Positions 33,897 through 47,231 of a stretch of 64,000 nucleotides of DNA are shown piece by piece. The stretch lies in NCBI RefSeq assembly GCF_011045215.1, contig NZ_CP049201.1. The stretch is one strand, 5' to 3'. The stretch comes from Escherichia coli (GTDB lineage Bacteria; Pseudomonadota; Gammaproteobacteria; Enterobacterales; Enterobacteriaceae). The notes beneath the pieces were generated by a model. The model was not told the DNA's origin. It saw only the letters and a list, made by a program, of their open reading frames with translations, and ran no database searches. Position 1 is the first letter of the stretch, and every line of letters begins with the position of its first letter. The position numbers were made by a program, and so were the translations under genes.

Positions 33897-33972
33897 TGGA
33901 GAACGGTGGCGGGAATCGAACCCACATCATCAGCCTGGAAAGCTGAGGTAATAGCCATTATACGATACCCGC
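33897..33972 (-). tRNA. tRNA-Gly(UCC)-like sequence, acceptor stem imperfect (possible pseudo-tRNA)
   Basis: Minus strand GCGGGTATCGTATAATGGCTATTACCTCAGCTTTCCAGGCTGATGATGTGGGTTCGATTCCCGCCACCGTTCTCCA: D-, anticodon- and T-arms like E. coli glyT, but 3' acceptor strand CACCGTTC does not pair with 5' GCGGGTA. Confidence 0.5.
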
Positions 33973-34190: not shown

Positions 34191-35237
34191 TTAAAAATCT
34201 TTCGTTATTTCTCTGACCGTCTGATTAAAACGTTCCTCTTCCAGTTCCACGCCAATCGCCCTGCGTCCCAGCAACAGTGCCGCTTTTATCGTGGAACCTG
34301 ACCCCATAAAAAAATCTGCGACCAAATCGCCTGGACGGCTGCTGGCAGTAATTATCTGACGCAACATATCCGCCGGTTTTTCACAGGGATGTTTGCCCGG
34401 ATAATACTGCACGGGCTTGTGCGTCCAGACATCCGTATAAGGAACGACAGCCGATACGGAAAAATAACGCCGCAGTGATTTGTATTCCTCCAGCAGGCTG
34501 ACATATTGCCGGTTCAGTTCGCTGTATGTGCTGACCAGCTGGTGATGTGGCTGCTCCAGTTCACCGCGCTGGTGTTTTTCTGCCGCCACACGTGCAAACA
34601 GCGCCTGCAGTTTACTGTAATCGGCCTCATTCGGTAACTGCCACTGACTGGTACCAAACCAGTGCGAAACCATGTTTTTCTTTCCGGTGGCTTCAGCTAT
34701 CTGTTTTGACGTTATCCCCAGTGATTCACGCGCATCACGGAAGTAAGAAATCAGCGGGGCCATCACGTGCTGTTTAAGCTCGCGCCCCTTTGCCGCATAG
34801 CCGTCATTTTTTGGCTGGTATGGCCCCTGATAATGTTCAGCAAACAGAATGCGCTCTGTTGCCGGGAAATACGCCCGCAGGCTTTCCTTGTTGCACCCGT
34901 TCCAGCGTCCGGACGGCTTCGCCCAGATAATGTGGTTCAGCACATTAAAGCGCTCACGCATCATGATTTCGGTGTCAGATGCCAGGCGATGACCACAGAA
35001 CAGGTAAAGACTTCCGGCAGGCTTCAGTACCCGCCAGAACTGCGCCAGACATCGGTCCAGCCATTGCAGGTAATCATCGTCGCCCTTCCACTGGTTATCC
35101 CAGCCCTCGGGCTTCACTTTAAAGTATGGCGGGTCTGTGACTATCAGATCGACAGAGTTTTCCGGTAATGTCCGGATAAATTCCAGGCAATCCGCGTTGA
35201 TTAACTCACAACTGGATATTTTTACAGTATTAGCCAT
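34191..35237 (-). CDS. DNA methyltransferase (DPPY motif; N6-adenine or N4-cytosine), orphan
   Basis: 348 aa; IVTDPPYF near N-terminus and FMGSGST near C-terminus; no adjacent restriction endonuclease gene. Confidence 0.85.
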   Translation of the reverse strand: MANTVKISSCELINADCLEFIRTLPENSVDLIVTDPPYFKVKPEGWDNQWKGDDDYLQWLDRCLAQFWRVLKPAGSLYLFCGHRLASDTEIMMRERFNVLNHIIWAKPSGRWNGCNKESLRAYFPATERILFAEHYQGPYQPKNDGYAAKGRELKQHVMAPLISYFRDARESLGITSKQIAEATGKKNMVSHWFGTSQWQLPNEADYSKLQALFARVAAEKHQRGELEQPHHQLVSTYSELNRQYVSLLEEYKSLRRYFSVSAVVPYTDVWTHKPVQYYPGKHPCEKPADMLRQIITASSRPGDLVADFFMGSGSTIKAALLLGRRAIGVELEEERFNQTVREITKDF

Positions 35238-35902: not shown

Positions 35903-36913
35903 TTGTACGAAATACATTACGACGTTGAGTCTGAACAGCAAGCTTTTGAATTACTTGAACGTTACCTAAACGGACAAGCTTTACCCGAAAAAATTAGTTT
36001 CAATGGTTGGCCAAGTCTAACCATCAGGTTGACTGGTGAAAAATTCAACAAATCACTCACACCTTCAGTTATGAAAGGATTTGTTGAAATGCAATCGCAA
36101 CTCAATAAGTCTTATGCGCTAGCAAAGTTCGGAACTCCTGATGTCCGCAGGCTAACAAAAGAAGAACTTGATGCTTTAGAAATTGAAGTTACAGTAGAGC
36201 AAGGTTCATCTCTTGTAGAGATTAACATTGATGGCTTCCTAAGCAAGCTTACGCACGAACTGGTAGGGAAAATGAACGCCACAGAGATTGTATTTACGGT
36301 TCTCGGTGCTGCCGTTATATGGGGCGGTGTAACCGTCTTCAAACGCTATCTGGATAACCGTAAAGATACTCGGTTGGCTGAAATTGCTAAAGAAGGCGAC
36401 AAAGAACACCTACGCGCAATGCAAGTGATGACACAGGAGGAAACAAAACGCCTCCAAATCATCTCAGAAATGGTGGCTAAAAAACCTCTACTCGACAATA
36501 TGGATCGAATGTCTTATGACGCTAAAACCACCATGGTTAAATCTTTCGTGCGTTCAGATTCAGCAGAAATTGACGGTGTCACAATAGATTCAGAAACGGC
36601 AAAAGAGCTAGTAACAAATGCTCGTCGACGCTCAGTTGAAATGAGAATAGACGGTATATACCGTATCGAAGAAGTGAATAATACCGACCCCGAAAGCTTC
36701 AAAGTTAAGGTTCGAAAGGTCGATTCTGATCAACGTTTGACCTGCGTTGTTCAGGATATATTCCTTGATGAATCAGGGAACAAAGAAGCCTTACAGCGAG
36801 CTGAATGGGAAAGAAAGCCTGTGCATTTAAGCATCAATGCCAAACACATTGATGGAGATATCAAGTCCGCCGTAATTTTACATGTGAAAGATGTTGAAGA
36901 TAAGCCCGAGTAA
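35903..36913 (+). CDS. Hypothetical protein, reverse-oriented AT-rich moron downstream of Q
   Basis: 336 aa, opposite strand to all flanking late genes, one central hydrophobic segment (IVFTVLGAAVIWGGVTVF), low GC; no family recognised. Confidence 0.5.
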   Translation: MYEIHYDVESEQQAFELLERYLNGQALPEKISFNGWPSLTIRLTGEKFNKSLTPSVMKGFVEMQSQLNKSYALAKFGTPDVRRLTKEELDALEIEVTVEQGSSLVEINIDGFLSKLTHELVGKMNATEIVFTVLGAAVIWGGVTVFKRYLDNRKDTRLAEIAKEGDKEHLRAMQVMTQEETKRLQIISEMVAKKPLLDNMDRMSYDAKTTMVKSFVRSDSAEIDGVTIDSETAKELVTNARRRSVEMRIDGIYRIEEVNNTDPESFKVKVRKVDSDQRLTCVVQDIFLDESGNKEALQRAEWERKPVHLSINAKHIDGDIKSAVILHVKDVEDKPE

Positions 36914-36928: not shown

Positions 36929-37318
36929 TCAAGATTCCACTTCGGCATCCATTTCTAAACTTACATCCAACATACTCAGGCAACCGTCGATAAACCCTTC
37001 AGCCATCTGTATCTCTATACGTATCAATTTCTCATCCTTCCAACGCGCCTTTGCAATCTTGCGCTTGGATATCCTGTATAAATAATGTGCCACAAGAAGC
37101 GAATGCTCATAAGGCCTTTTTTGCTTTAAACAAGCAAGACAACCTTCAATAATTAATGCGTCACTATCTGAACAAGCCAGGCGTTTCTTACTGGTATAGG
37201 GCAGAAGTCCCTTAAACCCGGCAGCTATAGGTGAATAGTCCACACCCGAGCTATCACTAGCCGCCCATGCCCCCCAACGCTCAAGAACCATCTGAATATC
37301 ACGCGCCATCGTTACCAC
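36929..37318 (-). CDS. Antitermination protein Q-like
   Basis: 129 aa immediately upstream of late/lysis region and downstream of RusA, Cys-containing; lambdoid Q position. Confidence 0.6.
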   Translation of the reverse strand: MVTMARDIQMVLERWGAWAASDSSGVDYSPIAAGFKGLLPYTSKKRLACSDSDALIIEGCLACLKQKRPYEHSLLVAHYLYRISKRKIAKARWKDEKLIRIEIQMAEGFIDGCLSMLDVSLEMDAEVES

Positions 37319-37670
37319 CTGTAATTTCGTAAATCTTCACACCCAGCCGACCACCAGGTACGCGCTGACCGCGCACAATATTAATTTCATCAAACTGCTC
37401 GTCGTCGATAAGCAACCCCGCATGTGTCAGTGCATCCAGTGGTGCTTTCAGAATATTGTCCAGGTCACGACGGCGCTTATCCGGTGGCTCTGCAGTAATT
37501 TTTATTGCCAGCCTTCCGGACAGATTTAATTTCAGCCGCTGCTGGCGAACAATGAGCGCCACATCACGGCGATAACGCTCACCGGCTTTTGATACAAAAT
37601 ATGTGCTGCCACGACGTCGCCAGTAGGTGTTTACCGTCGGCGGGTAAGGCAAAACAAACTCTATACGCAT
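37299..37670 (-). CDS. rusA: Holliday junction resolvase RusA
   Basis: 123 aa; MRIEFVLPYPPTVNTYW...DLDNILKAPLDALTHAGLLIDD typical RusA. Confidence 0.85.
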   Translation of the reverse strand: MRIEFVLPYPPTVNTYWRRRGSTYFVSKAGERYRRDVALIVRQQRLKLNLSGRLAIKITAEPPDKRRRDLDNILKAPLDALTHAGLLIDDEQFDEINIVRGQRVPGGRLGVKIYEITGGNDGA

Positions 37671-37682
37671 CAGTAACCTCTT

Positions 37683-38732
37683 TTACCCGAGCACGCCGGT
37701 TGCAAAGGCGTGATCAAGAAAACGAAAAATTAAATCAACCTGGGAACCATGCTTTTCTTCGAACGCCAGCGGATCCGCATGAAGTTCGTTGTGATGTTCC
37801 CGGCATAACGGTAGCGTGAAAATATCGTGGGATTTTGTTCCCATTCCGCCCTGACCATGACCAATCAGGTGATGGGGATCGTCGGCTGGCTTACCACAGC
37901 ACGCACACGGCTGTGTCTTTACCCAGCGTGTATATTTCTCATTTATCCAACGGCGACGTTTAGGTCGCTTCATGAAAGATTCCGGAGACTCCGGATCTAC
38001 GGCAATGCTGACCACCGTCTTTTCCTGTGGTGCGTTCTGTTGCTGGTGGGCGTGAGGTGGTAGCGCAATATTTTTTGTGCGCTGCTTCAGTATGCTGGTA
38101 GCTGTCTGCTCTCCCGGTACGATGTCGCTTTCGCGGTATACTGAGTGGATTTTTTCACCCGGAAGCTTCAGGATTCGACGCGCCATATTTTCGGTCATGG
38201 CATCCACTACATCATTTACAGCAGCCCAGCAGTACAGTTCAGCCAGCGATAATTCCCGCTCCTGTGTACCGCTTATTGCGTGACGTATGACGTCAATCAT
38301 CCAGGCTGTCAGATTTTGTTGAGCAAGCTGCCCGAGTGATTCGGAGGTCTGGTCACGCAGCTGGTTGTCGCAGTGCCAGCACAACACCATCGCGCCGGTG
38401 CCGTAACGATGTATGACGGTTTCACTGTGATGATAGTCACCATGAGGCCACTGGCAGGATTTGACATGACGCAACAGCCAGTCAGACAGTGCGCCAGCGC
38501 CGCCAGCAGCACGAATCACCCGCTCATCGCTGAAAAATGGCAGTAATGATTTATCTTCCGCCAGCGGCTGGCGAACAGCAGGAACAACTCCGAACGGCAG
38601 ACCGCGCATGCTTTTCGGTTCCGGTTCCACCAGCACTCGAGGGTTATGAAATACCTGCATGGATTCACGACCAGGCTTAAGGACCACCAGCCCGAGTTCC
38701 GGTACCGGAACAGGTCGAAGTAATACCCGCAC
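37683..38732 (-). CDS. DUF968-like phage protein with C-terminal Cys/His motif
   Basis: 349 aa; C-terminal ...TQPCACCGKPADDPHHLIGHG...CREHHNELH HNH/zinc-binding-like. Confidence 0.55.
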   Translation of the reverse strand: MRVLLRPVPVPELGLVVLKPGRESMQVFHNPRVLVEPEPKSMRGLPFGVVPAVRQPLAEDKSLLPFFSDERVIRAAGGAGALSDWLLRHVKSCQWPHGDYHHSETVIHRYGTGAMVLCWHCDNQLRDQTSESLGQLAQQNLTAWMIDVIRHAISGTQERELSLAELYCWAAVNDVVDAMTENMARRILKLPGEKIHSVYRESDIVPGEQTATSILKQRTKNIALPPHAHQQQNAPQEKTVVSIAVDPESPESFMKRPKRRRWINEKYTRWVKTQPCACCGKPADDPHHLIGHGQGGMGTKSHDIFTLPLCREHHNELHADPLAFEEKHGSQVDLIFRFLDHAFATGVLG

Positions 38733-39006: not shown

Positions 39007-39492
39007 TACTATCCTCGTAATGGTGCGACAGACGCCAGTTGTTCAGGCTGGCTTTAACTACAACATTATAATCTAGTCTTTCTTAATGCTGAAGTGACTG
39101 ACCGAATCCGCATGTGATTCTTTGGTGATCAGAATAACATCGGATGGCAATGGCATTACGATAAACTCACCATTCTCAAGAACTATTACTTCATAATTAC
39201 CTGGTATAGAAAGCGCAGCAATTAATTCCTTATCGTTCATAACCAAAATCCCGTGAACTTTAAACACCTCCCCTTAAGGGGACCATCCTTCTTCTCCCTG
39301 CGCGCCAATCAAGTAATGAGATTCTATTTCCCCCGTAATTAGCCTCAAGAACAACAAATCACAAAAACACAAAAAGCCTGTTTGATTAAAAATAATCGTA
39401 ACAAAAAACCCGCCGAAGCGGGTTAAGTGCGGGTGCGTTGAGGATGCCTGACACATCAGAGGTGGCGAGGGATTTCTCCCCCGCCAGGTCTC

Positions 39493-39648
39493 TTACTCCT
39501 CAGATTCGTAAGCTGTGAAGACAGCGACCTCCGTCTGGCCGGTTCGGATTCGTACCTCGCAGAGGTCTTTCCTCATTACCAGTGCCGTCACTATGACGGT
39601 TAAACAGATGACGATCAGGGCGATTAACATCGCCTTTTGCTGCTTCAT
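39493..39648 (-). CDS. hok: Hok/Gef family type I toxin
   Basis: MKQQKAMLIALIVICLTVIVTALVMRKDLCEVRIRTGQTEVAVFTAYESEE; upstream in-frame mok-like extension and hairpin-rich leader. Confidence 0.8.
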   Translation of the reverse strand: MKQQKAMLIALIVICLTVIVTALVMRKDLCEVRIRTGQTEVAVFTAYESEE

Positions 39649-40102
39649 AGCCTGCTTCTCCTTGCCTTTCGGCACGTAAGAGGCTAACCTACGTTTGTGT
39701 AGCATAGATTGGGCCTCAGATTAATGTTAAGCGTCTTGCCGGACGCGTAATGTTAACTGGGGCTTTTCTCTGTCTGCCTTACAGTGGCATGCCCGAGGCA
39801 GACAGCCTCAGGCACCCGCAACAATCTTACCGACACCGATAAGAAAACGCTATTTTTTATTGCCAGAACCTTCTGCCCAGGCTAATGTATCCGCGTCAGA
39901 ACGGCGCAATGCGCTCGCCTGAGATACGTTTACTTGTCATTGGTGGCAACAGATAACGGCAATTGTTGTTTCTGTTTGTTTCCTTCAAAAACCCCGGACC
40001 ATCAATCCGGGGTTTTTGTTTGTTATCCCCAGCGGCAAATCGAATACACCATCAGCGCCACCGCCATCGCAATTCCTGCCGTTGTGAATGCTTCAGGCCA
40101 GG

Positions 40103-40465
40103 TCATCGTAAAATATCCTCCACGCTTATCAGTCCGTTTCGCTCCAGGTAGTCCATCACCTTATCCGGCAGTTTGCAGTCCGGCTTCGCTTTCCTCAGTT
40201 GCCAGGTTAACTGCTTTACCTGCATGGTTAACTCGTCGACCAGACGCTGATACCCCACTGGTTTGTATTCATAAAATTTACCAACTGGCGCTGCTGCCAG
40301 CGATTGCAGTGCAATTTCCAGAACAGCAATATCCATCTTATATGCGCGAATGAGGTCATGGTCGATTGTACCTGGTATGCACAGTCTCTGTGATTCAATA
40401 GTCTCCTCTGCGTGGGCTATTAACTGCTCTTTGGTAAACCGTTCTTCTTTGGTCAAAGTCGCCAT
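40103..40465 (-). CDS. Hypothetical protein
   Basis: 120 aa ORF. Confidence 0.4.
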
Positions 40466-43468: not shown

Positions 43469-44197
43469 CTAACCAACATTTGAACGCCAGCTCTCCCAGT
43501 TAAAATTCACCCAGCGACCACCGTTCATGGTCATGCGGTCCATCACGCGCTCGCCAAGCAGCGTATTCATTGCCGTATGGTTCAGGTTCGTCAGCATCCC
43601 GACGCTGTGCATCGAGGCTGTTCTGCGATCGACTATCTGGTTCAGTGTGACCTGTTCGTTACGCGTATCCCGCTGCATACCAATTTCATCCAGGACAAGC
43701 AGGTCAACTTCACACAACCCCTGCAAAAATTTTTCGCCCGAGTTTTTGTTGTCGTAGTTGCCGTGTAACGCCAGCATCACATCCGCCACCGTCACCACAA
43801 TCACGCTGCGACCTTTCGCCAGAAGATGGTTGCCAATGGCTGCTGCCAGATGATTCTTTCCGGTACCCGGCTTACCGCTGAACACGAAATTTGTGCATCC
43901 GGTCATCATTTCTTCCGCGATGGATTTTGCCTGGCTCAGCGCGTGGCGTTGGCCATCGTTCTTCACCTGGTAATTCGCAAACGAACACTTCTGGTGCAAC
44001 AGTTGGATACCGGAACGCTTCATAATTTTCTCCACCCGGATCTGGCGATTCTGGCGGTTAATTTCCTCACTACGCTTTCGCCCTTCTGCAAGCTGCCACT
44101 CTCGCCACTCGTCCACTGTCCGGTACGGCGCGGTTACATGCTGCGGGGCCAGCTTACGGATACGCTCAAGAACACCACCTGCCGCAATATTTTTCAT
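43469..44197 (-). CDS. DnaC-like helicase loader (IstB-like ATPase)
   Basis: 242 aa; Walker A GKPGTGKNHLAAAIG, Walker B LLVLDEIG. Confidence 0.8.
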   Translation of the reverse strand: MKNIAAGGVLERIRKLAPQHVTAPYRTVDEWREWQLAEGRKRSEEINRQNRQIRVEKIMKRSGIQLLHQKCSFANYQVKNDGQRHALSQAKSIAEEMMTGCTNFVFSGKPGTGKNHLAAAIGNHLLAKGRSVIVVTVADVMLALHGNYDNKNSGEKFLQGLCEVDLLVLDEIGMQRDTRNEQVTLNQIVDRRTASMHSVGMLTNLNHTAMNTLLGERVMDRMTMNGGRWVNFNWESWRSNVG

Positions 44198-44203
44198 AAC
44201 CCG

Positions 44204-45313
44204 TTACCCCCTGAATCCCGGCGGAATTTCGGTATCCGGTTCAGAAATATGATTCACACAACGCTGGTTGTTCGTGCCGCTTACCGGGAGCAACCAGGGG
44301 TTTTCAAAATTCCGGTCCGGTCCAAAAAACGTCGTCGCTCGCTGAACAAATTCCGTTCCCGCTTTCCCGGTCGCCGCCAGGTATCTCGCGTAACGCCTCA
44401 CACCATCCAGCATGGTCTCTGGTGGCACCCCCTCGCGCAATCTGGCCTTCCAGGCACTGAATGCGGATTTCTTCGGGTTTGCCCCGGCACGCAACGGGTA
44501 TTCCCGCCAGACCTGTTCGAACACATCCGGATAATCCACTCGTCCCACAGGCCGCCCGGTGTTTTCCGGGACTACCCGATCGGCTTCCCGCTGAATGGCG
44601 GAATCGGCTTCAGGCTGCTGCAGTTGGTGTGATTGCTCCGACCCTGCGGTCATCACCTGCTGCACAGCGCCCGAATCGGTTTTCAGCGCATACGCCGAAT
44701 CGGCTTCCGGTGTCGTGCCTGCTGGCTGACCAGAATTTACGGTCTGAACATCCCCTGCCTGGTTCGTGGTGTTTTTTTCGCCATGAGCTATAGTGTTTTT
44801 GTCCTGTTCTTTCTCCTGCTCCTGTTCCTGTTCTTGGCTTCGAAGCCCCTTAAAAGCCCCTTCGAAGCCCCTTACCGAATTTCGGCTATTATTCCGCCTC
44901 ACATCCAGATGGAAATCCGTTTTATATCTGTCGTAAAACGCTGACAGAAAAGCGTTTTCAGGTAATGATGCATACTCATTCCTGACACCTGCACAACGGT
45001 TATCGCCAGGCTTCAACGTTTCCCCAACCTGCCAGGCTGCCATTTCATGGACCCAGACCATCTCGGCATCATGGTCATAGCTACAAAAACCAGCTTCAAC
45101 AGCCCTTTTAAGCCCCTTTGAAGCCCCTTCCAGACCAAGCCCGGTTTCATGAGCAAGGTATAAAACTGGCAGGTAATACAAACCCAGCATATTTGCGTGA
45201 GGGGATGTCATCAGGTAAAAAGCAACAACTTGCGCTTCTGCACCCGCCTTTCTAAGTTCTCTCCCCGTTTCTCCCAGCCAGAATCGCGGAGAAACTTTTG
45301 CGTAATCACGCAT
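44204..45313 (-). CDS. Replication initiator/replisome organizer (lambda O-like role) with internal iterons
   Basis: About 369 aa from MRDYAKVSPRFW...; central low-complexity QEQEQEQEK linker; iterons inside coding sequence. Confidence 0.6.
   Translation of the reverse strand: MRDYAKVSPRFWLGETGRELRKAGAEAQVVAFYLMTSPHANMLGLYYLPVLYLAHETGLGLEGASKGLKRAVEAGFCSYDHDAEMVWVHEMAAWQVGETLKPGDNRCAGVRNEYASLPENAFLSAFYDRYKTDFHLDVRRNNSRNSVRGFEGAFKGLRSQEQEQEQEKEQDKNTIAHGEKNTTNQAGDVQTVNSGQPAGTTPEADSAYALKTDSGAVQQVMTAGSEQSHQLQQPEADSAIQREADRVVPENTGRPVGRVDYPDVFEQVWREYPLRAGANPKKSAFSAWKARLREGVPPETMLDGVRRYARYLAATGKAGTEFVQRATTFFGPDRNFENPWLLPVSGTNNQRCVNHISEPDTEIPPGFRG
44838..45135. repeat. Two clusters of AAGCCCCTT iterons inside the replication initiator gene (putative ori)
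   Basis: cgAAGCCCCTTaaAAGCCCCTTcgAAGCCCCTT at 44838-44876 and agCCCTTTTAAGCCCCTTTGAAGCCCCTT at 45100-45135. Confidence 0.55.
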
Positions 45314-45530
45314 GGCTACCTCATCTGGTGCCGAACCTTCCTCCGGATATAATCTGTGGTTCCCAATCGACAGAACCAGAGGAGGTTCGACATGTATTTT
45401 TTGAAAAGCCTTTATCAGGCTCATGTATTAAATGTTGCAGCAACAAACCGCTGGTGTAACAGCCCCGAAATGCTCCCGGATTACAGAGCCTGGCTGCGCG
45501 CCGAAACATACCTTCGTCTCGACATATTGA

Positions 45531-46053: not shown

Positions 46054-46479
46054 TTAATGCACAGCCAGAGTGTTTCCTGCCGGGCCACCACGATTCATCT
46101 GATCGAACAGAACGATCGCTGATGCAACGAAATCATCAATATCTTTCACCAGCCGTTCCTTCGTCTCTACCAACTCCCGAAAATAAGCGGAACTGTGGCT
46201 GCGCATTCGGGCCACCAGCGGAGGCGGCATTGCTTTTTCGATCGCTGGTAACAACGCCTGAATTTTTTTAACCGCATCAGGGGTGTCTTTATCCAGCCAA
46301 CGGAAAATTTTCTGGGTATTACGAGCCAGCGCTTCCGGATGCCTGTCGTCATATAGCTCCGGGAACGTCATACCCAGCTCAAAATAAGCCTGGGTTATTT
46401 CAGCTGCCGGAACTTTTTCACCGTCCGGATGCGCCCAGGCATTCATCGCCATACGGATGTGTTCATGCTTGATTTTCAT
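46054..46479 (-). CDS. YdaT-like protein (Rac-type)
   Basis: 141 aa MKIKHEHIRMAMNAWAHPDGEK...; follows Cro-like gene as ydaT follows ydaS in Rac (from memory). Confidence 0.5.
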   Translation of the reverse strand: MKIKHEHIRMAMNAWAHPDGEKVPAAEITQAYFELGMTFPELYDDRHPEALARNTQKIFRWLDKDTPDAVKKIQALLPAIEKAMPPPLVARMRSHSSAYFRELVETKERLVKDIDDFVASAIVLFDQMNRGGPAGNTLAVH

Positions 46480-46738
46480 GAATCAACTCCGGTGTATTTG
46501 GTGTGTTAGCCTTATCTCCAGCAGGCAACCCGTCAGTTGGATTCGGGTATAAATCTGGTCGCAATTCATGAGGAGTCACCCCAGTTGCAATATAAATTTG
46601 ACGAACCCGTTCCCCCGTCGGAACTCGACCATTGTATTCATTTGCCCATTTGTGTATTTGAGATGGCCAAGCCCCTATTGCACGCCCTAGTGGACGAATA
46701 CCACCAGCAATCTTTATTGCTTTGTCCAATGCTGTCAT
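46463..46738 (-). CDS. YdaS/Cro-like HTH regulator
   Basis: 91 aa, first gene of rightward early operon, divergent from repressor gene. Confidence 0.55.
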   Translation of the reverse strand: MTALDKAIKIAGGIRPLGRAIGAWPSQIHKWANEYNGRVPTGERVRQIYIATGVTPHELRPDLYPNPTDGLPAGDKANTPNTPELIHENQA

Positions 46739-46841: not shown

Positions 46842-47231
46842 ATGGACATGAGAAAAAAGCAATACGACACCCCGCTAGCAGAAAGGTTAGATGCGATCTC
46901 TCAACAGCATCATTTAAGTGGTTCAGATTTAGCGCGTATCGCTGGTGTAGGTCGTTCATCAGTCAACGCATGGAAAAAAAGAGGAACAATCAGTAAAGAT
47001 TCCGCAGCCAAAATTGCAGAAGCCACAAACGTTTCCCTTTCTTGGCTACTGACAGGGAAAGAAGAGACAAATAGAGAAGCGCTTGATGATGACGAGAAGG
47101 CCCTGCTTGATGTTTACAGAAACCTGCCACCTGTAGAACGTAGAAATATGCTGGCAGCTTTTCAAATGCGACTTCAAAAACTGACCGAATTTTACTCAGA
47201 ATACGTCGACCCAATAACACGACAAAAATAA
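46842..47231 (+). CDS. Prophage repressor, HTH (RacR-like; no S24 peptidase domain)
   Basis: 129 aa; N-terminal HTH ...LSGSDLARIAGVGRSSVNAWKK... Confidence 0.6.
   Translation: MDMRKKQYDTPLAERLDAISQQHHLSGSDLARIAGVGRSSVNAWKKRGTISKDSAAKIAEATNVSLSWLLTGKEETNREALDDDEKALLDVYRNLPPVERRNMLAAFQMRLQKLTEFYSEYVDPITRQK

Follow-up and report, generated by a model that had tools for sequence, protein, structure and literature searches.

Is the short open reading frame (ORF) set among hairpins in this prophage a complete toxin–antitoxin locus, and if so, how far does it extend and what might it do? The question concerns positions 39493-39960 of a 64,000-nucleotide stretch of Escherichia coli DNA (contig NZ_CP049201.1; the whole stretch is called the window below), where an earlier reading of the letters, the original prediction, had placed a hok/sok-like type I toxin–antitoxin locus. 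Our analysis indicates that 39829-39403 of the minus strand is very probably a complete hok/mok/sok cassette that belongs to the HokD/HokW subgroup. It forms a transcription unit of its own and lies in the nin-like region of a lambdoid prophage of the Rac/Qin type. The observation of a hok/sok cassette at this place was correct but ordinary; the cassette type is already known.

Toxin, mok frame and extent of the locus

The canonical Hok ORF that had been claimed is a 51-residue minus-strand frame, which matches Pfam PF01848 (HOK_GEF) with 78.9 bits (cut-off 22) and covers positions 1-42 of the 42-position profile. The claimed mok-like extension is also present, as an in-frame ORF of 70 residues that scores 109.9 bits against PHROG 251, 'MokW-like host killing'. 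Rfam family RF01794 matches 39817..39643 of the minus strand over the full model (positions 1-157 of 157) with 109.2 bits, the gathering score being 59. Despite its name, 'sok', the RF01794 model has the sense of hok and represents the leader of the hok mRNA as far as the hok AUG. The full-length hok mRNA has a minimum free energy (MFE) of -175 kcal/mol (z = -6.8; 0 of 100 shuffles folded as well) and, together with the full-model Rfam match, this bears out the hairpin-rich leader of the original prediction. The inverted repeat announced at about 39770-39805 proved to be exact, its arms in the DNA being CTGTCTGCC (39770-39778) and GGCAGACAG (39798-39806), and it forms a 10-bp helix in the RNA fold. 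With E values of 2e-22 (Pfam) and 7e-24 (Rfam) the observation lies far above chance.

Alignment to the hokD/relF family, which had been proposed as a check, gave hokD/relF of E. coli K-12 and hokW-sokW of phage 933W/Sp5 as the closest named relatives, and close copies of the window hok are named hokD by PGAP. Two NCBIfam models gave scores below their cut-offs with the window toxin, these being the plasmid-Hok model NF007279 (47.2 bits, cut-off 73) and the HokA model NF007290 (41.4 bits, cut-off 89). Every feature by which the hok/sok family can be recognized in sequence appears to be present (Table 1). The toxin is of the family, the overlapping mok frame has a Shine-Dalgarno (SD) sequence of its own, and the convergent antisense gene has a conserved promoter and a terminator hairpin. 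The Rfam match, tac-fbi pairing, ucb and dcb boxes and a metastable 5' hairpin complete the set. Both the Sok promoter and the hok frame, whose absence or disruption had been named as grounds for giving up the prediction, are intact in the sequence.

The interval originally given holds the core of the cassette but needs correction at both ends. Homology with phage and genome relatives spans ~39825 to ~39404 in nearly all cases (~80 of 84 loci) and reaches further upstream only in a few loci of the window type. Because the homology ends at ~39825, the segment 39826-39960 is a rare, unrelated spacer that lies outside the cassette. At the other end the interval lacked the 3' untranslated region (UTR; 39492-39403), which belongs to the locus and carries the putative protective hairpin, the fbi element and the terminator. 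The inferred start of the mRNA coincides with position 1 of the Rfam model and with the edge of the conserved block.

Table 1 Features of the hok/mok/sok cassette, in positions of the window
Feature	Position	Strand	Remarks
Full-length hok mRNA	39817..39403	-	Inferred +1 at 39817; 3' end past the U-run of the terminator; ~415 nt
hok promoter -10 TAAGAT (inferred)	39829-39824	-	Read from sequence; A-tract at 39851-39860
tac element GGGUGCCUGAGG	39817-39806	-	GGGUGC/UGAGG; pairs with fbi in the MFE fold
Leader helix, nt 13-22/39-48 (the originally noted inverted repeat, CUGUCUGCCU/AGGCAGACAG)	39805-39770	-	10 bp
tac partner in the 5' metastable hairpin (mRNA nt 19-32)	39799-39786	-	
ucb (anti-SD) box GCCCCAG	39763-39757	-	Closed form: paired with the mok SD region
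mok SD GAGG	39717-39714	-	8 nt 5' of the mok AUG; sequestered in the MFE fold
Sok-target (sokT) hairpin with mok AUG	39710-39686	-	Helix nt 108-115/125-132; overlaps the variable patch 39712-39693
mok frame	39705..39493	-	70 aa: Hok preceded in frame by the 19-aa leader MLHKRRLASYVPKGKEKQA
dcb box GCCUC	39684-39680	-	Open form: paired with the mok SD region
hok SD AAGGAG	39663-39658	-	9 nt 5' of the hok AUG
hok toxin gene	39648..39493	-	51 aa, MKQQKAMLIALIVICLTVIVTALVMRKDLCEVRIRTGQTEVAVFTAYESEE; Pfam HOK_GEF
3' UTR hairpin UGGCGGGGGA/UCCCUCGCCA	39486-39463	-	G+C-rich, 5' of fbi; RNA fold
fbi (fold-back inhibition) element CCUCAACGCACCC	39443-39431	-	CCUCA/GCACCC; pairs with tac
Intrinsic terminator of hok mRNA	39424-39403	-	Stem 39424-39407, then T-run
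sok promoter	39662-39690	+	-35 TTGCCT 39662-39667, 17-nt spacer, -10 TAACCT 39685-39690
Sok antisense RNA (predicted)	39697-39767	+	~71 nt: single-stranded 5' tail, long hairpin, U-run

RNA elements and the mechanism of plasmid R1

The mechanism considered here is that of hok/sok of plasmid R1; its sequence elements were verified in the window and its kinetics are inferred. In the R1 model a metastable 5' hairpin forms during transcription, the finished mRNA is closed by a tac/fbi lock with ucb over the mok SD, slow 3' trimming gives a refolded form that is translatable and binds Sok, and the duplex decays through RNase III (PMC9841398). All sequence elements of this model are present in the window, are complementary as needed and are conserved or covarying. 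Conservation was assessed on 80 loci fetched from IMG/VR, from which 49 unique full-length units were aligned.

The mRNA fold-back that the original prediction had proposed to look for was seen in the MFE fold, where tac and fbi form an 11-bp helix directly 5' of the intrinsic terminator. An alternative register of fbi (UCAGGCAUCC, 39451-39442) is also possible. Across the 49 homologues 99.8% of the cells of the tac-fbi helix hold a pair, the only changes being G-C to G-U, and relative to an R1-type plasmid locus there is a compensatory U-A/C-G double change in the consensus fold of both subfamilies. The competing hairpin of mRNA nucleotides 1-13 and 19-32 forms in folds of mRNA trimmed from the 3' end past fbi, where it competes with the leader helix 13-22/39-48. 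Its pair 12-20 is G-C, G-U or (in locus L052) A-U in the alignment, and pair 15-47 of the leader helix changes in a compensatory manner, being A-U in 37 and G-C in 10 of the sequences. The 3' UTR hairpin also varies compatibly (one pair is G-U in 30 sequences, A-U in 10 and G-C in nine) and is colinear with the hairpin of the plasmid locus. It likely protects the 3' end of the truncated mRNA, by analogy with the R1 model from which the protector role comes (PMC9841398).

The ucb box is colinear with AAAGCCCCG of the plasmid locus, and in the MFE fold it pairs at nucleotides 55-57/103-105 and 59-61/99-101. When tac was forced onto ucb in a constrained fold, GAGGC (101-105) paired with GCCUC (134-138) around the target hairpin, which gives the open form with tac on ucb and the mok SD region on dcb. 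This form is suboptimal, ~7 kcal/mol less stable than the MFE fold of the trimmed RNA, and did not appear in unconstrained MFE folds of 3'-trimmed mRNAs. Given that difference, prediction alone gives no proof of the switch and, since the ucb, dcb and SD boxes are invariant in the 49 homologues, covariation gives no verdict on it.

The alignment itself is shallow. Global covariation statistics are weak because the phage homologues are 96% identical, and only three pairs have double changes, the same number as in shuffles. When the plasmid-type locus was included, the consensus fold had 24 pairs with double changes and kept the tac-fbi helix. This fold across subfamilies is readable only at the tac-fbi and 3' helices, because the leader is partly misaligned (columns 23-100).

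Neither promoter, hok or sok, was picked up by a scan with promoter consensus sequences, and both were placed instead by homology and published mutagenesis. No convincing -35 hexamer was found for the hok promoter in the context of the window. In 42 of the 49 unique relatives the hok -10 is TAGAAT at an equal distance from +1, mostly with a TTTGCG-like -35 (TTTGCG-17-TAGAAT); the TAAGAT of the window is found in five. Both hexamers of the sok promoter are kept in 48 of the 49 homologues. Mutation of the same -10 in hokW-sokW (primers YO-421/422) unleashed toxicity (PMC8621323), and the sokW -10 region mutated in that work is identical in sequence to that of the window. The coordinates of Sok were transferred from the sokW feature of 933W (AF125520 58664-58734) by alignment, and the predicted RNA folds with -30.3 kcal/mol (z -4.5). 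A promoter-like site on the sense strand within the hok leader, TTAACA-18-TATGCT (39701-39730, minus strand), is probably due to chance (two sites versus 0.8 expected in shuffles).

By analogy with R1 the cassette would operate as follows. A weak promoter would give a stable hok mRNA, the 5' end of which would fold into the metastable hairpin during transcription. In the finished RNA the 5' tac would pair with the 3' fbi and ucb would mask the mok SD, a form open neither to translation nor to Sok binding. Slow 3' trimming would strip fbi, and refolding of the 5' end would then expose the mok ribosome site and the Sok-target hairpin. Abundant, short-lived Sok made from the convergent promoter would bind this region, blocking translation of mok and the coupled translation of hok, and the duplex would be degraded. 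Once the supply of Sok ends, Hok would be made, enter the inner membrane and collapse the membrane. Processing of the mRNA, the half-lives of the RNAs, translational coupling and the toxicity of this copy are all ascribed to the window locus by this analogy. The Mok leader peptide differs between homologues, and mok is in frame with hok in the window and in 933W, whereas Rac 442/2 and the plasmid type have the two in different frames. Such a variable leader peptide fits the notion that the act of translating mok matters rather than the Mok product.

Relatives and sequence variation

The hokW-sokW locus of 933W/Sp5 is 92% identical in nucleotide sequence to the window over the whole transcription unit. 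It is likewise prophage-borne and has the same order of elements (tac, 5' helix, ucb, Sok hairpin, mok, hok, 3' hairpin and fbi), the same in-frame arrangement of mok and identical Sok -35 and -10 hexamers, and its HokW toxin is identical to that of the window at 47 of 51 residues. The two loci differ in setting, the 933W cassette lying near the right end of the genome after a tail-fibre gene whereas that of the window lies in the nin-like region. Moreover, there are several differences in the 5' tail of Sok and in its target, which make hokW-sokW another 'specificity type', and the hok promoter of 933W has TAGAAT directly after a small ORF whereas that of the window has TAAGAT after a 160-nt spacer and a terminator. 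Homology of the 933W record to the window stops before the terminator hairpin.

HokD of K-12 (relF, in the Qin cryptic prophage) is identical to the window toxin at 49 of 51 residues. Its 3' UTR, including fbi and the terminator, is nearly identical, and a DUF968/YdfU gene and Q lie downstream in both. The K-12 locus aligns with the window from ~15 nt 5' of the hok AUG to the terminator and thus retains the hok SD, the coding sequence (CDS) and the 3' UTR. The SD (AAGGAG) is the sole upstream element left in K-12, where tac, ucb, the Sok target, the mok start, the Sok gene and the sok -10 have been replaced by relBE. Because relE/relB took the place of the upstream part in K-12, the window carries the intact form of the locus that is truncated there.

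Comparison with plasmid R1 was made via an R1-type locus on a Klebsiella IncFII plasmid (L085). This locus has the same elements in the same order as the window, its tac and fbi pair in its MFE fold, and its Sok -35 (TTGCCT) overlaps the hok SD as in the window. The two share a consensus fold, and both match the RF01794 territory and Pfam HOK_GEF. In contrast, DNA similarity between the R1-type locus and the window is limited to ~75 nt around the Sok promoter, and HokW, with four of its 51 residues different from the window toxin, shares only ~44% identity with R1 Hok (PMC8621323). In the plasmid type mok is read in another frame than hok and stops within the hok gene, whereas the two are in frame in the window, and the Sok hairpin is ~20 nt shorter than that of the window. 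Plasmid R1 hok/sok is borne on a plasmid and has a proven role in post-segregational killing.

A 581-nt query matched 4,723 of 5,426 complete E. coli genomes, at a median of two and a maximum of nine places per genome, the matches being annotated as hokD or Hok/Gef. Matches were also found in 102 phage records, including 933W and VT2-Sakai, in which the locus is annotated mokW/hokW/sokW. The 3' UTR of hok (39403-39484, minus strand) gave an end-to-end match to the small RNA IsrK (RF01394) with 30.5 bits against a gathering score of 50, and this candidate was dropped. The related Salmonella prophage sequence (L086 1200-1640) is a decayed hok pseudogene, without an IsrK match, that occupies the corresponding place upstream of Q.

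Variation in the unit peaks in the 20 nt at 39712-39693, which comprise the 5' tail of Sok, the target of that tail and codons 2-7 of Mok. The entropy of this patch is 0.39 versus 0.10 overall and 0.04 in the CDS, making it ~10-fold more variable than hok, and seven sequence types occur among the 49 loci. Diversity of the patch may act as a specificity code that keeps co-resident hok/sok cassettes from silencing one another. Another speculation starts from the sense orientation of the cassette inside the early-right operon, which runs from replication to Q: antiterminated transcription of that operon could collide with the convergent sok promoter, and Sok loss by read-through would then free Hok at induction. 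We regard these proposals, the specificity code or the read-through, as rather improbable.

Two substitutions are private to the window copy by comparison with 48 homologues: a U-to-C change at mRNA nucleotide 7 (39811) and Thr25-to-Met in Hok. The C at 39811 leaves the alternative pairings in place or makes them stronger (C7-G25 in the 5' hairpin). Codon 25, changed at 39575, is ATG in the window and ACG (Thr) in 48 of the 48 homologues compared. The exact Met25 protein (WP_206438885.1; the 70-residue form is QIF13990.1) is recorded from one E. coli chromosome only, whereas the Thr25 form is found on at least 1,000 contigs. The main text of PMC9841398 gives no positional data for residue T26 of R1 Hok. 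A suspicious clustering of private substitutions in hok was considered and rejected, since the flanks diverge more, differing 5-10% from the nearest genome, and hok is the best-conserved piece. The Tyr47 codon (39510-39508, minus strand) lies within a UACG motif, as in K-12 hokD, in which low-level TadA A-to-I editing is reported to convert Tyr to Cys, the second cysteine of a disulfide (PMC12214031). The local hairpin at this UACG is predicted to be weak.

Role of the cassette and its prophage setting

By analogy with hokW-sokW of Sp5, the most likely role of the cassette is at prophage induction, where freed Hok would speed lysis and phage release. In that system HokW is toxic and is neutralized by sokW expressed from its own promoter, with RNase III and Hfq contributing partly (PMC8621323). 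Upon RecA-dependent induction the sokW RNA vanishes and HokW appears in the inner membrane, and deletion of hokW-sokW made growth arrest come ~40 min later and halved phage release (PMC8621323). This help to lysis and phage release is the only role shown experimentally for a prophage hok copy (PMC8621323).

Several points weigh against an intact cassette that acts at induction. The induction-linked role may not transfer, because the Sp5 cassette lies near the prophage end and not in the nin region, and the chromosomal hokA, hokB and hokC loci gave no post-segregational killing (cited in bioRxiv 10.1101/2025.08.07.668861). The toxin also carries the private Thr25-to-Met change. The hok promoter has a plausible -10 yet no convincing -35, and the sok promoter fits the consensus in only 7 of 12 positions. 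In addition, the open translatable form lies well above the MFE of the trimmed RNA, whose MFE fold keeps the mok SD paired, and the near identity of the homologues leaves most pairs uninformative.

The cassette might be a relic that looks intact but, as in the case of the K-12 chromosomal hok loci, is inactive, being no longer expressed or no longer toxic. The literature reports K-12 hokA, hokC, hokD and hokE as inactivated and the native hokA, hokB and hokC as lacking post-segregational killing; the private changes in the toxin and in tac, the poor -35 context of the hok promoter and the decayed pseudogene at the same position of the Salmonella prophage point the same way. However, the defect of K-12 hokD, loss of the leader and of sok to relBE, is absent here, as is any insertion sequence element, frameshift or stop codon. 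Nothing in the regulatory boxes, the two SDs, the Sok promoter or the two terminators is damaged, and all of them are conserved. The change in tac strengthens the alternative pairings, and 42 of 45 diverse Hok homologues were toxic when tested (preprint survey). We therefore consider a relic quite improbable. Still less can be said for the notion that the ORF and hairpins arose by chance in non-coding spacer DNA: only the shortness of the ORF speaks for this notion, and it is refuted by the Pfam and Rfam E values, the fold z-score and the occurrence of the locus in most complete E. coli genomes, so that its probability is close to nil.

A functional cassette might instead serve mainly in prophage addiction or in abortive infection, rather than in lysis at induction. 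Plasmid hok/sok mediates post-segregational killing and lowers the plating of T4 (as cited in PMC8621323), and hok is about four-fold enriched in prophages (23% versus 5% expected; preprint survey). Neither the present analysis nor the literature consulted gave support for these functions in the HokD/HokW subgroup, however, and hok is not enriched beside defence systems (preprint survey). No PADLOC model matches Hok or its neighbours in the window, and the sole direct test of a prophage copy gave a positive effect on phage release (PMC8621323). Addiction or an anti-phage role is thus possible, although we think it the less likely answer, and help to lysis at induction is the role that we favor.

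The finding adds little to what is known of such cassettes, the type having been annotated in the GenBank record of 933W (mokW/hokW/sokW), tested in 2021 (PMC8621323) and surveyed over thousands of genomes in a 2025-26 preprint. Its value is one of annotation: the window carries the complete form of a locus that survives in K-12 only as the truncated hokD, and automated pipelines usually annotate the 51-residue CDS alone, omitting mok, sok and the RNA elements. The cassette may influence the timing of lysis when the prophage is induced.

The prophage and nin-like setting that had been claimed agrees with the gene content of the window itself, the cassette lying between the replication genes and the DUF968-RusA-Q genes of a Rac/Qin-like lambdoid prophage. 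From downstream to upstream on the minus strand the order is a DNA methylase (34191-35237), the Q antiterminator (36929-37318), RusA (37299-37670), DUF968 (37683-38732), two small phage ORFs, hok and a terminator hairpin (39986-40018). Upstream of this hairpin follow a 27-residue hydrophobic ORF, several small phage ORFs, DUF1627, DnaC-like and other replication genes (43469-45424) and then YdaT and YdaS, with a divergent CI-like repressor at 46842-47231 on the plus strand. The YdaS-like (46463-46738) and YdaT-like (46054-46479) pair, divergent from the CI-type repressor, forms a Rac-type immunity region; note that Pfam names label the pair 'toxins'. The closest chromosome, that of E. coli strain R1, is 99.7% identical over the locus and is annotated alike, with terminase and lysis genes beyond Q.

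The 160-nt spacer (39826-39985) and the 13-bp hairpin that follows it are inserted between the small ORF and hok in this context alone and are found in 38 of the 5,426 E. coli genomes. The hairpin reads as a terminator on both strands. The spacer gave only sub-threshold, terminator-driven Rfam hits and is unannotated in the 38 genomes; a weak promoter-like site, TTGCCA (39861-39866)-17-TAATGT (39884-39889), can be made out by eye on its plus strand. Neither Pfam nor PHROG gave a match for the 27-residue ORF (40023-40106, minus strand). In most phage contexts, including 933W, its stop codon is immediately 5' of the hok promoter, and the ORF thus accompanies the cassette.

Two further features lie beyond Q. 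A 336-residue ORF with a TTG start (35903-36913, plus strand), between the methylase and Q, matched nothing in Pfam, NCBIfam or PADLOC; it may be a moron, or else spurious. A tRNA-like sequence (33902-33972, minus strand), with the lysis genes on one side and the methylase on the other, scores 36.4 bits with the Rfam tRNA model (gathering score 29). It has a UCC (Gly) anticodon loop and mismatches in the acceptor stem, and ARAGORN calls no tRNA there. In E. coli strain R1 the corresponding site is annotated by PGAP as tRNA-Gly, and the sequence in the window may be a degenerate phage tRNA.

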